From the NCBI RefSeq assembly GCF_044647545.1, contig NZ_CP172818.1: 64,000 nt of DNA. One strand, 5' to 3'. The notes beneath the pieces are model-generated. The model saw nothing but the letters and a program-made list of their open reading frames with translations. It was not told the DNA's origin and made no database searches. The stretch's first letter is position 1. Each line of letters opens with the position of its first letter. The position numbers and the translations under genes are program-made. This DNA comes from Escherichia coli. Lineage in GTDB: Bacteria > Pseudomonadota > Gammaproteobacteria > Enterobacterales > Enterobacteriaceae. Shown here piece after piece: positions 4,796 to 44,475 of this stretch.

Positions 4796-5503
4796 TTAAG
4801 GTCTCCTTAGCGCCTTATTGCGTAAGACTGCCGGAACTTAAATTTGCCTTCGCACATCAACCTGGCTTTACCCGTTTGTTATTTGGCTCGCCGCTCTGTG
4901 AAAGAGGGGAAAACCTGGGTACAGAGCTCTGGGCGCTTGCAGGTAAAGGATCCATTGATGACGAATAAATGGCGAATCAAGTACTTAGCAATCCGAATTA
5001 TTAAACTTGTCTACCACTAATAACTGTCCCGAATGAATTGGTCAATACTTCCACACTGTTACATAAGTTAATCTTAGGTGAAATACCGACTTCATAACTT
5101 TTACGCATTATATGCTTTTCCTGGTAATGTTTGTAACAACTTTGTTGAATGATTGTCAAATTAGATGATTAAAAATTAAATAAATGTTGTTATCGTGACC
5201 TGGATCACTGTTCAGGATAAAACCCGACAAACTATATGTAGGTTAATTGTAATGATTTTGTGAACGGCCTATACTGCCGCCAGGTCTCCGGAACACCCTG
5301 CAATCCCGAGCCACCCAGCGTTGTAACGTGTCGTTTTCGCATCTGGAAGCAGTGTTTTGCATGACGCGCAGTTATAGAAAGGACGCTGTCTGACCCGCAA
5401 GCAGACCGGAGGAAGGAAATCCCGACGTCTCCTGGTAACAGAAAGTTAACCTCTGTGCCCGTAGTCCCCAGGGAATAATAAGAACAGCATGTGGGCGTTA
5501 TTC

Positions 5504-14202: not shown

Positions 14203-15071
14203 TGTCCATTTTAATTGATAAAAACACCAAGGTTATCTGCCAGGGCTTTACCGGTAGCCAGGGGACTTTCCACTCAGAACAGGCTATTGCATACGGCACT
14301 AAAATGGTTGGCGGCGTAACCCCAGGTAAAGGCGGCACCACCCACCTCGGCCTGCCGGTGTTCAACACCGTGCGTGAAGCTGTTGCTGCTACTGGCGCTA
14401 CCGCTTCTGTTATCTACGTACCAGCACCGTTCTGCAAAGACTCCATTCTGGAAGCTATTGATGCAGGCATCAAACTGATTATCACCATCACTGAAGGCAT
14501 CCCGACGCTGGATATGCTGACCGTGAAGGTGAAACTGGATGAAGCGGGCGTTCGCATGATCGGCCCGAACTGCCCAGGCGTTATCACTCCGGGTGAATGC
14601 AAAATCGGTATCCAGCCTGGTCACATTCACAAACCGGGTAAAGTGGGTATCGTTTCCCGTTCCGGTACACTGACCTATGAAGCGGTTAAACAGACCACGG
14701 ATTACGGTTTCGGTCAGTCGACCTGTGTTGGTATCGGCGGCGACCCGATCCCTGGCTCTAACTTTATCGACATCCTCGAAATGTTCGAAAAAGATCCGCA
14801 GACCGAAGCGATCGTGATGATCGGTGAGATCGGCGGTAGCGCTGAAGAAGAAGCGGCTGCGTACATCAAAGAGCACGTTACCAAGCCTGTTGTGGGTTAC
14901 ATCGCTGGTGTGACTGCGCCGAAAGGCAAACGTATGGGCCACGCGGGTGCGATCATTGCCGGTGGGAAAGGGACTGCGGATGAGAAATTCGCTGCTCTGG
15001 AAGCCGCAGGCGTGAAAACCGTTCGCAGCCTGGCTGATATCGGTGAAGCACTGAAAACTGTTCTGAAATAA
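14202..15071 (+). CDS. sucD: Succinyl-CoA synthetase alpha subunit
   Basis: ORF track; 289 aa; start overlaps sucC stop. Confidence 0.96.
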
Positions 15072-15170
15072 ATATCTGTAATAAGAAATAGCCCTCGCCG
15101 CTTCCCTCTACAGGAATGGCGAAGGGCTGTCGGTTTCGACATGGTTGGCCATCATATGATGGCCTTTTTT
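15072..15170 (+). ncRNA. sdhX: 3'-UTR-derived small RNA SdhX (RybD), ending at the sucD terminator
   Basis: Sequence immediately after the sucD stop, ending in hairpin GGCCATCATATGATGGCC plus T6; matches my recollection of the sucD 3'UTR sRNA. Confidence 0.6.
15147..15170. terminator. Bidirectional rho-independent terminator between sucD and mngR
   Basis: Palindrome GGCCATCATATGATGGCC followed by TTTTTT; convergent genes on both sides. Confidence 0.75.
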
Positions 15171-15174
15171 ATGC

Positions 15175-15897
15175 TTATCGCGATGATTTTCGCTGCGCTA
15201 TCAGGGTAAATTTATAGTCATCGGTATTAAAAGCGTTGCGGCTATATTCAAACACCCGACCATCAACTAAATATCCACGCGATACTTTTTCAAGAATCGG
15301 CTTTGTCTGGCTGATATTAAGCAGACGGCTCATCTCTTCGGTTGGCATCAGAGGAATGATTTCCTGTTCGCTACGATCGATAACCATTTTCTTCACTTCT
15401 TCGATAAAGTGATATTTCGAATTTTCCATGACCTGCCAGGTGAGATCCGGGAACAACGCAAGCGGCATCCAGGTTTCTTCCAGCGCCATTGGCTTTTGCT
15501 TGCGATAGCGCACGCGCTTCACATGCCACACACGATCCTGCGGGGTGATTTGTAGCTGTTGCTGAAGAAAATCGTCAGCCGGAATCACTTCGAATATCAG
15601 AACTTCACTGTGTGTATCGACGTGACGGTCCGACAGTTTTTCATCAAAACTGGTTAACTGAAAAATATCGTAATTGACCCGCTCTTCTTTGACGTAAGTC
15701 CCGCTGCCCTGAATGCTTTCGAGGATCTGCTGCTCGACTAGCTGGCGCAAAGCCTGACGCACCGTAACCCGGCTGACGCCAAACTCTGTTTGTAGCGCTG
15801 ATTCAGTGGGTAACGCATCGCCAGGTTTAAGCTCGCCACGCGCAATTTGTTCACGAATGCGATCGGCAATCTGCCGGTATAAGGGCTTGTGTCCCAT
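15175..15897 (-). CDS. mngR: GntR-family transcriptional repressor of the mannosyl-D-glycerate operon
   Basis: ORF track; 240 aa; N-terminal GntR HTH, UTRA C-domain; divergent from mngA. Confidence 0.92.
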   Translation of the reverse strand: MGHKPLYRQIADRIREQIARGELKPGDALPTESALQTEFGVSRVTVRQALRQLVEQQILESIQGSGTYVKEERVNYDIFQLTSFDEKLSDRHVDTHSEVLIFEVIPADDFLQQQLQITPQDRVWHVKRVRYRKQKPMALEETWMPLALFPDLTWQVMENSKYHFIEEVKKMVIDRSEQEIIPLMPTEEMSRLLNISQTKPILEKVSRGYLVDGRVFEYSRNAFNTDDYKFTLIAQRKSSR

Positions 15898-20633: not shown

Positions 20634-20689
20634 ATAGCAATCAAACCGAAGCCACATATGCGCGGCCAGATTGTTGACAAAGGGCGCTT

Positions 20690-20800
20690 TGTTCATGCCG
20701 GATACGGCATGAACGCTTTATTCGGTCTACAAAAGCAGGCAAATTCAATATATTGCAGAGATGATGTAGACACTGGCAAGCGTAGCGCATCAGGTAATTT
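20690..20800. repeat. Degenerate REP-like palindromic units downstream of mngB
   Basis: GCCGGATACGGCATGAACGCTTTATTCGGTCTAC and AAGCGTAGCGCATCAGG resemble REP consensus with several mismatches. Confidence 0.4.
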
Positions 20801-20885
20801 TGCGTTTATCTTCACTCTCAAGCCACGTATATGTGGCTTTATTTTTAACAAAATAATAACCCTGGGTGAGTTAATTATAATATAA

Positions 20886-21479
20886 TTATAAGTTAACTAA
20901 ATGTTAATATTGGCGGGGTGGATTTATGCCTTTATTAGTAATCCTGAAACTCTGCGTCGTATTAGCCAGTGACCAAAAAAAGAATTAAGGTCAACCGTGC
21001 TGTTTTTGCTTCGTCTCTTTTTATCTTTAATTGCCAACCGAAACTAATTTCAGCCTTATAACTCACACATTTTAAACATAAATGTCACTAAAGTTACCTT
21101 ATTGAAACATAATTAACATATTTGGTTGGTTTTGATATAAATCAATTTTTAATTCTTGAAAAAAATCTGCAAAACACGATAAATTGTCGTAGATCAAATT
21201 GGTGAGATCGTGACAATTTCGCTATAAATTGATCACTGTCGAAAAATGCAAATTTGCTCAATAAAAACCTGTTTATTGTAAGGATTTTGCGGCGTAATAT
21301 AATTACGGGATCAATTTGGTTTATTCATTAACATATTTGTAACTTTTTTATCATTGTCTTTTCCTCTTTTGATGAAATGGCAACGATAGAGGCGAGCAAA
21401 TAATTTTGTATTGGGGCATGCGTGTGACCCTTTCTAACGGGGTTCACTCTCGGAGTCTTCATGCGATGAGCAAGGAGTC
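20886..21479 (+). promoter_or_regulatory. cydAB multi-promoter control region (AT-rich, FNR/ArcA-regulated)
   Basis: About 600 bp AT-rich non-coding DNA upstream of cydA; contains the FNR-consensus sites listed separately. Confidence 0.6.
21132..21145. promoter_or_regulatory. FNR box (perfect TTGAT-N4-ATCAA) upstream of cydA
   Basis: TTGATATAAATCAA read directly; a second near-consensus TTGTCGTAGATCAA at about 21184-21197. Confidence 0.6.
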
Positions 21480-21482
21480 ATG

Positions 21483-23051
21483 ATGTTAGATATAGTCGAA
21501 CTGTCGCGCTTACAGTTTGCCTTGACCGCGATGTACCACTTCCTTTTTGTGCCACTGACGCTCGGTATGGCGTTCCTGCTGGCCATTATGGAAACGGTCT
21601 ACGTCCTTTCCGGCAAACAGATTTATAAAGATATGACCAAGTTCTGGGGCAAGTTGTTTGGTATCAACTTCGCTCTGGGTGTGGCTACCGGTCTGACCAT
21701 GGAGTTCCAGTTCGGGACTAACTGGTCTTACTATTCCCACTATGTAGGGGATATCTTCGGTGCGCCGCTGGCAATCGAAGGTCTAATGGCCTTCTTCCTC
21801 GAATCCACCTTTGTAGGTCTGTTCTTCTTCGGTTGGGATCGTCTGGGTAAAGTTCAGCATATGTGTGTCACCTGGCTGGTGGCGCTCGGTTCAAACCTGT
21901 CCGCACTGTGGATTCTGGTTGCGAACGGCTGGATGCAAAACCCAATCGCGTCCGATTTCAACTTTGAAACTATGCGTATGGAGATGGTGAGCTTCTCCGA
22001 GCTGGTGCTTAACCCGGTTGCTCAGGTGAAATTCGTTCACACTGTAGCGTCTGGTTATGTGACTGGCGCGATGTTCATCCTCGGTATCAGCGCATGGTAT
22101 ATGCTGAAAGGTCGTGACTTCGCCTTCGCTAAACGCTCCTTTGCTATCGCTGCCAGCTTCGGTATGGCTGCCGTTCTGTCTGTTATTGTTCTGGGTGATG
22201 AATCTGGTTACGAAATGGGCGACGTGCAGAAAACCAAACTGGCTGCTATTGAAGCCGAGTGGGAAACGCAACCTGCGCCTGCTGCCTTTACTCTGTTCGG
22301 CATTCCTGATCAGGAAGAGGAGACGAACAAATTTGCGATCCAGATCCCTTACGCGCTGGGCATCATTGCAACGCGTTCCGTGGATACTCCAGTTATCGGC
22401 CTGAAAGAACTGATGGTGCAGCATGAAGAACGCATTCGTAACGGGATGAAGGCGTACTCTCTGCTCGAGCAACTGCGTTCTGGTTCTACCGACCAGGCGG
22501 TTCGTGACCAGTTCAATAGCATGAAGAAAGACCTCGGTTACGGTCTGCTGCTGAAACGCTATACGCCAAACGTGGCTGATGCGACTGAAGCGCAGATTCA
22601 ACAGGCAACCAAAGACTCCATTCCGCGTGTAGCGCCGCTGTACTTCGCGTTCCGTATTATGGTGGCGTGTGGCTTCCTGCTGCTGGCAATCATCGCGCTC
22701 TCTTTCTGGAGTGTCATCCGCAACCGCATTGGCGAGAAAAAATGGCTGCTGCGCGCCGCGCTGTACGGTATTCCGCTGCCGTGGATTGCTGTAGAAGCGG
22801 GCTGGTTTGTGGCTGAATATGGCCGCCAACCGTGGGCTATCGGTGAAGTGCTGCCGACAGCTGTGGCGAACTCGTCACTGACCGCAGGCGATCTCATCTT
22901 CTCAATGGTGCTGATTTGCGGCCTGTATACCCTGTTCCTGGTGGCAGAATTGTTCTTAATGTTCAAGTTTGCACGCCTCGGCCCAAGCAGCCTGAAAACC
23001 GGTCGCTATCACTTTGAGCAGTCTTCCACGACTACTCAGCCGGCACGCTAA
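21483..23051 (+). CDS. cydA: Cytochrome bd-I ubiquinol oxidase subunit I
   Basis: ORF track 21480..23051; canonical start [12 protein letters not shown]; 522 aa. Confidence 0.96.
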
Positions 23052-23066
23052 GACAGGAGTCGTCAA

Positions 23067-24206
23067 ATGATCGATTATGAAGTATTGCGTTTTATCTGGT
23101 GGCTGCTGGTTGGCGTTCTGCTGATTGGTTTTGCAGTCACTGACGGTTTCGACATGGGGGTGGGCATGCTCACCCGTTTCCTCGGTCGTAACGACACCGA
23201 GCGTCGAATTATGATTAACTCCATTGCACCACACTGGGACGGTAACCAGGTTTGGCTGATCACCGCGGGCGGCGCACTCTTTGCTGCCTGGCCGATGGTC
23301 TATGCCGCTGCGTTCTCCGGCTTCTATGTGGCGATGATCCTCGTGCTGGCGTCTTTGTTCTTCCGTCCGGTCGGTTTTGACTACCGCTCCAAGATTGAAG
23401 AAACCCGCTGGCGTAACATGTGGGACTGGGGCATCTTCATTGGTAGCTTCGTTCCGCCGCTGGTGATTGGTGTAGCGTTCGGTAACCTGTTGCAGGGCGT
23501 ACCGTTCAACGTTGATGAATATCTGCGTCTGTACTACACCGGTAACTTTTTCCAGCTGCTTAACCCGTTCGGCCTGCTGGCAGGCGTGGTGAGCGTAGGG
23601 ATGATCATTACTCAGGGCGCAACCTATCTGCAAATGCGTACCGTGGGTGAACTGCACTTGCGTACCCGTGCAACGGCTCAGGTGGCGGCACTGGTGACAC
23701 TGGTCTGCTTCGCACTGGCTGGCGTATGGGTGATGTACGGTATCGATGGTTATGTTGTGAAATCAACAATGGACCATTACGCAGCCTCTAACCCGCTGAA
23801 TAAAGAAGTGGTTCGTGAAGCTGGCGCATGGCTGGTTAACTTCAACAACACGCCAATTCTGTGGGCTATTCCGGCACTGGGTGTGGTTCTGCCGCTGCTG
23901 ACCATCCTGACTGCACGTATGGATAAAGCCGCGTGGGCGTTTGTGTTCTCCTCCCTGACGCTGGCCTGCATCATCCTGACTGCCGGTATCGCAATGTTCC
24001 CGTTTGTGATGCCGTCCAGCACCATGATGAACGCAAGTCTGACAATGTGGGATGCAACTTCCAGCCAGCTGACGCTTAACGTCATGACCTGGGTTGCGGT
24101 GGTTCTGGTACCGATCATTCTGCTCTACACCGCCTGGTGCTACTGGAAAATGTTCGGTCGTATCACCAAAGAAGATATTGAACGTAACACCCACTCTCTG
24201 TACTAA
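23067..24206 (+). CDS. cydB: Cytochrome bd-I ubiquinol oxidase subunit II
   Basis: ORF track; 379 aa. Confidence 0.96.
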   Translation: MIDYEVLRFIWWLLVGVLLIGFAVTDGFDMGVGMLTRFLGRNDTERRIMINSIAPHWDGNQVWLITAGGALFAAWPMVYAAAFSGFYVAMILVLASLFFRPVGFDYRSKIEETRWRNMWDWGIFIGSFVPPLVIGVAFGNLLQGVPFNVDEYLRLYYTGNFFQLLNPFGLLAGVVSVGMIITQGATYLQMRTVGELHLRTRATAQVAALVTLVCFALAGVWVMYGIDGYVVKSTMDHYAASNPLNKEVVREAGAWLVNFNNTPILWAIPALGVVLPLLTILTARMDKAAWAFVFSSLTLACIILTAGIAMFPFVMPSSTMMNASLTMWDATSSQLTLNVMTWVAVVLVPIILLYTAWCYWKMFGRITKEDIERNTHSLY

Positions 24207-24220
24207 GTAAGGAGCTAAAA

Positions 24221-24334
24221 ATGTGGTATTTCGCATGGATTCTGGGAACGCTTCTTGCCTGTTCGTTTGGGGTAATCACCGCGCTGGCGCTTGAGCACGT
24301 CGAATCAGGCAAAGCCGGTCAAGAAGACATCTGA
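24221..24334 (+). CDS. cydX: Cytochrome bd-I oxidase small accessory subunit (37 aa)
   Basis: ATG 14 bp after cydB stop behind AGGAG RBS; reads MWYFAWILGTLLACSFGVITALALEHVESGKAGQEDI; stop overlaps ybgE start; below ORF-track size cutoff. Confidence 0.9.
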   Translation: MWYFAWILGTLLACSFGVITALALEHVESGKAGQEDI

Positions 24335-24627
24335 TGAGTAAGATTATCGCAACCTTGTATGCGGTAATGGACAAGCGCCCCCTGCGGGCGCTTTCCTTCG
24401 TGATGGCGCTTCTGTTAGCAGGATGTATGTTTTGGGACCCATCACGTTTCGCCGCGAAGACCAGTGAACTGGAAATCTGGCATGGTTTATTGCTGATGTG
24501 GGCCGTCTGTGCTGGTGTGATTCACGGCGTGGGCTTTCGTCCGCAGAAGGTTCTCTGGCAAGGGATTTTTTGCCCTTTGCTTGCCGATATTGTTCTCATT
24601 GTCGGGCTGATTTTCTTCTTCTTTTAA
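24334..24627 (+). CDS. ybgE: Small inner-membrane protein of the cyd operon
   Basis: ORF track; 97 aa; hydrophobic. Confidence 0.88.
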   Translation: MSKIIATLYAVMDKRPLRALSFVMALLLAGCMFWDPSRFAAKTSELEIWHGLLLMWAVCAGVIHGVGFRPQKVLWQGIFCPLLADIVLIVGLIFFFF

Positions 24628-24643
24628 ATCAGAATTCTCTTTA

Positions 24644-24678
24644 AAAATTTATGGGCCGCTTCAGGCCCATAAATTTTT
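24644..24678. terminator. Bidirectional rho-independent terminator after ybgE
   Basis: 13-bp perfect stem AAATTTATGGGCC/GGCCCATAAATTT flanked by A-run and T-run. Confidence 0.7.
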
Positions 24679-24776
24679 ACGCTCCCTTAACTTGCCCTCA
24701 TTCCCAAACCTCAATCGCGCGCGTATAGTAGCAGCGTTTAAAAGCTCTAACTTTTGTTGCATTACCGGGATGTAAA

Positions 24777-30578: not shown

Positions 30579-30654
30579 GGGTCGTTAGCTCAGTTGGTAG
30601 AGCAGTTGACTTTTAATCAATTGGTCGCAGGTTCGAATCCTGCACGACCCACCA
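30579..30654 (+). tRNA. lysT: tRNA-Lys (UUU)
   Basis: 76-nt GGGTCGTTAGCTCAGTTGGTAGAGCAGTTGACTTTTAATCAATTGGTCGCAGGTTCGAATCCTGCACGACCCACCA; anticodon loop CTTTTAA. Confidence 0.97.
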
Positions 30655-30730
30655 ATCGCTAAGGTGGAAGCGGTAGTAAAACGTGAAGGATAACGTTGCG
30701 TCAGCAACGGCCCGAAGGGCGAGACGAAGT

Positions 30731-30754
30731 CGAGTCATCCTGCACGACCCACCA
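30731..30754 (+). other. 3' fragment of tRNA-Lys (acceptor/T-arm remnant) in the lysT-valT spacer
   Basis: ATCCTGCACGACCCACCA is identical to the last 18 nt of the tRNA-Lys genes, with no 5' half. Confidence 0.6.
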
Positions 30755-30789
30755 CTAACATAGTTAGTTGTAGTATCCAGCGTAGTATC

Positions 30790-30865
30790 GGGTGATTAGC
30801 TCAGCTGGGAGAGCACCTCCCTTACAAGGAGGGGGTCGGCGGTTCGATCCCGTCATCACCCACCA
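30790..30865 (+). tRNA. valT: tRNA-Val (UAC)
   Basis: 76-nt GGGTGATTAGCTCAGCTGGGAGAGCACCTCCCTTACAAGGAGGGGGTCGGCGGTTCGATCCCGTCATCACCCACCA. Confidence 0.97.
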
Positions 30866-30867
30866 CC

Positions 30868-30943
30868 GGGTCGTTAGCTCAGTTGGTAGAGCAGTTGACT
30901 TTTAATCAATTGGTCGCAGGTTCGAATCCTGCACGACCCACCA
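30868..30943 (+). tRNA. lysW: tRNA-Lys (UUU)
   Basis: Identical to lysT, 76 nt. Confidence 0.97.
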
Positions 30944-30994
30944 CTAATTACGGTGGGTTCGGTGGAAGTAGTTTGTAGTATCCAGCGCAGTATC

Positions 30995-31070
30995 GGGTGA
31001 TTAGCTCAGCTGGGAGAGCACCTCCCTTACAAGGAGGGGGTCGGCGGTTCGATCCCGTCATCACCCACCA
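30995..31070 (+). tRNA. valZ: tRNA-Val (UAC)
   Basis: Identical to valT, 76 nt. Confidence 0.97.
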
Positions 31071-31073
31071 CTC

Positions 31074-31148
31074 GGGTCGTTAGCTCAGTTGGTAGAGCAG
31101 TTGACTTTTAATCAATTGGTCGCAGGTTCGAACCTGCACGACCCACCA
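31074..31148 (+). tRNA. lysY: tRNA-Lys (UUU) variant copy, 75 nt, with a 1-nt shorter T-loop
   Basis: Same as lysT except T-arm reads GGTTCGAACCTGC instead of GGTTCGAATCCTGC. Confidence 0.85.
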
Positions 31149-31196
31149 ATTTTAAAGATTGGTTCCGAGTAGAAATCTTTCAGGTAACACCCGTAT

Positions 31197-31272
31197 GGGT
31201 CGTTAGCTCAGTTGGTAGAGCAGTTGACTTTTAATCAATTGGTCGCAGGTTCGAATCCTGCACGACCCACCA
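31197..31272 (+). tRNA. lysZ: tRNA-Lys (UUU)
   Basis: Identical to lysT, 76 nt. Confidence 0.97.
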
Positions 31273-31305
31273 TCCTGAATGATTAAAGCAGCATAATCCC
31301 GCAAG

Positions 31306-31381
31306 GGGTCGTTAGCTCAGTTGGTAGAGCAGTTGACTTTTAATCAATTGGTCGCAGGTTCGAATCCTGCACGACCCACCA
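31306..31381 (+). tRNA. lysQ: tRNA-Lys (UUU)
   Basis: Identical to lysT, 76 nt. Confidence 0.97.

Positions 31382-44307: not shown

Positions 44308-44475
<168 letters not shown>

Follow-up and report, generated by a model that had tools for sequence, protein, structure and literature searches.

CydX, the small subunit of the cytochrome bd-I oxidase of Escherichia coli, has been the subject of genetic, biochemical and structural work for more than ten years. The protein is recovered together with CydAB on purification, and activity depends on it (PMC4325964; PMC12648545); a 2025 review brings together co-purification and phenotypes in E. coli, Salmonella and Brucella (PMC12648545). Within the complex, CydX lies next to the quinol site, close to haem b558, where it touches CydA transmembrane (TM) helices 1, 4, 5, 6 and 7, and a 2022 structural review describes its role as mainly structural (PMC8951039). 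In the genetic work of Hobson et al. 2018 (PMC6005532), a chromosomal cydX M1P allele acted like a deletion, none of the residues proved essential singly, the N-terminal block 2–11 was required and the protein could do without its last six residues; the same study used immunoblots of SPA-tagged CydX made from the chromosomal locus (PMC6005532). Allen et al. (PMC4325964) collected more than 300 CydX homologues, all from Alpha-, Beta- and Gammaproteobacteria, and reported that an E. coli cydX deletion is complemented by divergent homologues and that residues at the C-terminus tolerate free replacement. In the main text of the Weaver 2019 preprint, cydX goes unmentioned.

AppX (CbdX) of the bd-II oxidase (7OSE chain C) is likewise a single-helix subunit, encoded after two large oxidase genes and sharing the motif MWY.xW..G, and it binds its subunit-I homologue nearly as CydX does (PMC8951039); unlike CydX, it has 30 residues, is without the long polar tail and belongs to a different operon. 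One-helix analogues that occupy the same face of subunit I are CydS, in the bd oxidase of Geobacillus thermodenitrificans, and CioY/CioZ, in cyanide-insensitive oxidases (PMC8951039; PMC12648545), which according to the same two sources have no detectable sequence similarity to CydX.

Here we describe the cyd locus in a 64,000-nt stretch of DNA (hereafter, the window) from a non-K-12 strain of E. coli, which spans the chromosome from ybgQ/gltA to uvrB and is ~97–99% identical to MG1655, with some indels. [quoted passage not shown] The two genes differ by one synonymous nucleotide, G in the window versus A in K-12 at 24295, the third position of codon 25 (GAG/GAA). On the evidence set out below, the window ORF is almost certainly cydX, the third gene of a cydABX-ybgE operon, whose product would be a structural bd-I subunit made from its own SD.

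The cydX reading frame and its identity

The genes and signals of the operon, in window coordinates, are:

21483–23051, plus strand: cydA, cytochrome bd-I subunit I (PF01654, 570.7 bits; K-12 annotation)
23067–24206, plus strand: cydB, cytochrome bd-I subunit II (PF02322, 369.5 bits; annotation)
24208–24214, plus strand: SD sequence TAAGGAG of cydX, read off the sequence, 6 nt 5′ of the ATG
24221–24334, plus strand: cydX (formerly ybgT), 37-aa single-helix cytochrome bd-I subunit
24334–24627, plus strand: ybgE, 97-aa cyd-operon membrane protein (PF09600, 116.1 bits; NF007881, 185.2 bits)
24642–24679, plus strand: perfect 16-bp hairpin with a 6-nt loop, 3′ of ybgE, with an A-run in the left arm and a T-run in the right arm

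The cydX frame consists of ATG, 36 sense codons and TGA, and translates into MWYFAWILGTLLACSFGVITALALEHVESGKAGQEDI. A preliminary description of the window had pointed to a 37-codon ORF at this place, with a good ribosome-binding site, lying between cydB and ybgE and overlapping the ybgE start with its stop, and these particulars were all borne out. The SD stands at a suitable distance from the ATG, the cydB stop TAA (24204–24206) leaves an intergenic gap of 14 nt, and the TGA of cydX (24332–24334) and the ATG of ybgE (24334–24336) form TGATG, in which base 24334 is common to both genes. The product had also been called a single-helix membrane peptide, in agreement with what we observed: residues 1–24 carry no charge at all and have a mean Kyte–Doolittle hydropathy of +1.80, and residues 25–37 average −1.21 and include five charged residues (E, E, K, E and D) together with a His between the first two. 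The composition is that of one hydrophobic helix followed by a polar tail.

The assignment of this peptide to CydX, the accessory subunit of cytochrome bd named in the preliminary description, is carried by a full-length match to 6RKO chain X (“Cytochrome bd-I ubiquinol oxidase subunit X”; 37/37 residues, E = 8.9e-22), a chain that occurs identically in nine PDB entries (6RKO, 6RX4 and seven more). The peptide also passes the NCBIfam equivalog model for CydX (TIGR02106, 70.7 bits vs a cutoff of 31.6) and the Pfam family YbgT_YccB (PF08173, 53.9 bits vs 26.2). Furthermore, the gene lies 3′ of cydB in an operon of bd-I type, and its product has the shape of the CydX/YbgT_YccB family, i.e. ~30–55 residues with an uncharged N-terminal TM helix starting from MWYFxW, a conserved Glu near position 25 and a polar tail that varies. 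By its sequence identity to the solved chain, the peptide would be a physical subunit of the CydAB complex.

Existing annotation places the gene in the same position. In NZ_CP033850.1, the CDS WP_000270282.1 corresponds to window positions 24221–24334 and ybgE to 24334–24627, and in the K-12 reference cydX (b4515, “cytochrome bd-I accessory subunit CydX”) has the same offsets. Of 5426 complete E. coli genomes, 5425 match an 801-nt query covering the cydB–cydX–ybgE segment; the records listed carry annotations of cydB, cydX and ybgE under the match, with cydX in 22 of the 22, and the 140 nt spanning cydX are at least 99% identical in 5395 of the 5425 genomes. The single remaining genome has no match to this segment, and two of the matches are plasmid-borne. 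The cydX gene found here is already known, and the window holds nothing new about it.

The two small subunits of the E. coli bd oxidases have the N-terminal pattern MWY..W..G in common, and the window peptide indeed gives a weak match to AppX (7OSE chain C, E = 0.015, 18.9 bits) and to the AppX/CbdX model NF011333. To the reading that the ORF encodes AppX/CbdX of bd-II rather than CydX of bd-I we nevertheless give practically no credence: with NF011333 the peptide reaches 21.7 bits, far short of the cutoff of 57, compared with 70.7 against 31.6 for TIGR02106, and both large subunits encoded next to it score above the bd-I equivalog cutoffs and below those for bd-II. CydA scores 1179.1 bits with NF011677 (bd-I subunit I; cutoff 968) and falls below the cutoff of the bd-II model NF011609, and CydB scores 867.9 bits with NF011579 (cutoff 718) and falls below that of the bd-II model NF011602. 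The gene order, mngB-cydAB...ybgE-ybgC-tolQRA by annotation, is that of the cyd locus. The annotated start of cydA is 21483, and its ORF opens one Met earlier, at 21480.

Conservation of CydX and selection on helix and tail

The length of the ORF carries no weight by itself as evidence for cydX. Over all six frames of the window, 274 ORFs start with ATG and run for 37 codons or longer, and 107 ORFs of at least 20 aa fall within 7 kb, an abundance that would suit an untranslated, chance open frame in the cydB–ybgE spacer. What lifts the cydX ORF above chance is the combination of its SD, its family-model scores, its identity to a solved chain and its conservation, in frame and in position, across species.

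For the last of these, each bacterial species was represented by one genome and searched with a DNA pattern built on codons 1–9 (MWYFAWILG), which gave at least 120 loci in species-representative genomes of Alpha-, Beta- and Gammaproteobacteria. As the pattern fixes codons 1–9, independent tests are provided by codon 10 onward, by the position of the stop and by the context. Among the matches listed, the 119 cydX ORFs that are complete on their contig all stop after 32–56 codons, and an SD core is present at −17 to −4 in 115 of the 119, compared with 5.7% of positions drawn at random from these loci. Every one of the 94 listed matches with at least 1300 nt of upstream sequence has a CydB homologue immediately 5′ of cydX in the same orientation, with a cydB–cydX gap of mostly 9–17 nt among the matches listed (14 nt in the window). 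On the other side, a YbgE homologue is found 3′ of cydX in 36 of 107 matches listed, and the 1-nt cydX/ybgE overlap recurs in 14 enterobacterial loci among them. Two residues of the orthologues listed are almost fixed, A13 (119/119) and E25 (117/119). Conservation in related species had been proposed beforehand as a point on which the assignment could fail, and the same ORF is found directly after cydB in at least 119 other proteobacterial species.

Substitutions were counted in 13 genomes, from 13 genera, chosen by CydB identity (at least 75%) and not by CydX, which avoids circularity, with the window as reference. In helix codons 10–25, differences at codon positions 1, 2 and 3 number 29, 4 and 92, and codon changes comprise 73 synonymous and 24 non-synonymous ones, where single random changes would be expected to be synonymous in 29% of cases. 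In tail codons 26–32, the corresponding counts are 34, 23 and 40, with 15 synonymous and 40 non-synonymous changes, close to the 24% synonymous expected. The contrast between the helix (73:24) and the tail (15:40) therefore indicates strong purifying selection on the helix and a tail nearly unconstrained in sequence; at the amino-acid level the polar tail (codons 26–37, 24296–24331) evolves almost neutrally. This result independently reproduces the finding of Allen et al. on the C-terminal residues (PMC4325964).

Taken with the perfect SD at the right distance from the cydX ATG, these data make an untranslated chance frame extremely improbable: the frame is open in 119 of 119 matches listed and in 13 of 13 CydB-selected genomes, its helix shows the synonymous excess of 73:24, and its peptide is identical to a chain that cryo-EM of the purified enzyme resolved. 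Ribosome occupancy, the other point on which the preliminary description could have failed, also speaks for the gene, as RiboReport manually labelled E. coli cydX as translated in Ribo-seq, where it was called by DeepRibo, REPARATION_blast and SPECtre (PMC8921622). Judging from the identical sequence in the strains studied, cydX is presumably expressed in the window strain as well.

Three ORFs run antisense to cydX in the ORF listing, one of them longer than cydX itself:

24163–24312, minus strand: antisense ORF, 49 aa
24215–24298, minus strand: antisense ORF, 27 aa
24276–24374, minus strand: antisense ORF, 32 aa

That one of these is the real gene and the plus-strand frame incidental is vanishingly unlikely, given that the equivalent intervals are interrupted by in-frame stops in 8, 5 and 9 genomes, respectively, out of the 13 selected by CydB, that the plus-strand frame has its highest number of substitutions at third codon positions, and that none of the three is annotated in RefSeq or K-12.

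An exhaustive HMMER scan with CydX returned 87 representatives at E ≤ 1e-3 among 1.84 billion. Among the predicted proteins were four of 83–126 aa (P0001, P0003, P0005 and P0006) in which a CydX start runs into ybgE-derived sequence, and P0005 has both PF08173 and PF09600. Such CydX–YbgE run-on proteins most likely reflect indels or assembly errors at the TGATG junction and not real fusions.

The cyd operon, YbgE and CydX-GGDEF fusions

According to the literature, CydX is required for the assembly and activity of bd-I. In the mechanism we propose, cydX would be translated from its own strong SD, 14 nt after cydB, into a 37-residue peptide of which residues ~1–24 would form one TM helix and the last ~13 a polar tail. 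Following published work, the helix would pack on the TM helices of CydA near haem b558, beside the quinol site, and loss of CydX would leave the haem b595/d site not stably assembled, with loss of oxidase activity. The C-terminal polar tail would be cytoplasmic, an orientation in keeping with the CydX-GGDEF fusions described below, since the nucleotide-binding domain of these proteins has to face the cytoplasm.

Downstream, we infer that ybgE is translationally coupled to cydX through TGATG. An extension of this idea is that the junction may couple the synthesis of YbgE to CydX translation and that YbgE is an unrecognised, perhaps transient, assembly partner of bd-I. The basis cited for this extension is that the TGATG overlap is kept in 14 enterobacterial genera and that YbgE lies beside cydX in 36 of the 107 matches listed. 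Two observations count against it: strains with a kanamycin cassette inserted at the cydX–ybgE boundary showed no phenotype related to bd (PMC6005532), and no PDB chain matches YbgE. We consider YbgE unlikely to be such a partner. The hairpin at 24642–24679 folds as RNA with −22.7 kcal/mol (z = −6.44; 0 of 200 shuffles were as stable) and is likely a bidirectional intrinsic terminator that closes cydABX-ybgE; a simple terminator scan did not list it because its T-run sits inside the stem.

Outside the window, the CydX search matched two longer proteins, P0059 (212 aa) and P0087 (197 aa), in which an N-terminal CydX helix is joined to a GGDEF domain (PF08173, 56 and 55 bits; PF00990, 51 and 58 bits, respectively). 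A search with P0059 recovered 60 clusters of 165–217 aa, all with both PF08173 and PF00990, at identities down to ~33%; the named clusters come from Methylococcales and other gammaproteobacterial MAGs, and their source label is just “CydX”. In nine loci, representing five members, the fusion gene occupies the cydX slot, 8–15 nt after cydB:

L124:5001–5639, fusion gene, outside the window
L126:1180–1773, fusion gene, outside the window
L128, L129, L130, L131:6001–6630, fusion genes, outside the window
L125, L127 and L132, further fusion loci, outside the window

In the four loci with enough upstream contig (three members), the fusion is preceded by a cydP-cydA-cydB operon. The 61-aa CydP gene (PF28236, precomputed annotation) of such operons overlaps the cydA start (L128:3107–3292; L129, L131:3103–3288). 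A tblastn search for a CydP-like gene upstream of cydA in the window (20640–21480) gave no convincing counterpart: a 35-aa match at ~20841–20945 (31–34% identity, E = 0.02–0.3 in a 1.1-kb target) was treated as noise, and nothing was found at E ≤ 1 against the whole window.

In an alignment of 61 fusion members, residues 1–28 are almost invariant, and ~57 of the 61 have a conserved RYDAxTF where the catalytic GG[D/E]EF signature would stand. With RYDAxTF in place of GG[D/E]EF, the domain is conserved yet degenerate in its signature and therefore probably not a cyclase. Allen et al. (PMC4325964) do not mention CydX-GGDEF fusions, and no description of them was found in the literature searched. 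The existence of these proteins suggests that a cytoplasmic domain can be anchored to the bd oxidase by way of the CydX helix, used as a docking module.

Small genes below the ORF cutoff and what cydX offers

The preliminary description had further stated that cydX is invisible to the ORF track of the window and that ORFs below the cutoff need inspection. An equivalent listing with the default cutoff of 60 aa indeed omits cydX; the entries that it gives for this stretch are cydB, ybgE and an antisense ORF of 157 aa. The second statement likewise stands, as three more genes annotated in the window encode products shorter than 60 aa:

4985–5017, minus strand: ybgV, 10 aa, exact DNA match to the K-12 small gene, between gltA and sdhC
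5001–5108, minus strand: ybgU, 35 aa, exact DNA match to the K-12 small gene, between gltA and sdhC
44326–44475, plus strand: acrZ, 49 aa, exact DNA match to K-12, between modE and modA

AcrZ is a small-protein partner of the AcrB efflux pump. Two RNA features of the window were also recorded:

15072–15170, plus strand: sdhX small RNA at the 3′ end of sucD, by BLAST against K-12 (99% over 99 nt)
30579–31381, plus strand: tRNA array lysT-valT-lysW-valZ-lysY-lysZ-lysQ, the same seven genes as in K-12

Rfam gave no match at gathering score in window positions 14500–15600, the sdhX region. The tRNA array keeps the K-12 order (Lys, Val, Lys, Val, Lys, Lys, Lys), is ~300 nt more compact and has different spacers; between collinear blocks, the window is ~480 nt shorter than K-12.

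Biologically, the cydX finding brings nothing new for E. coli. The conservation analysis, made independently, reproduces the published picture, in which the N-terminal helix is under constraint and the tail evolves freely. For the reading of genomic windows such as this one, cydX is a useful positive control, a functionally required gene below the 60-aa ORF cutoff, a cutoff that also hides three other annotated genes in the same 64 kb.
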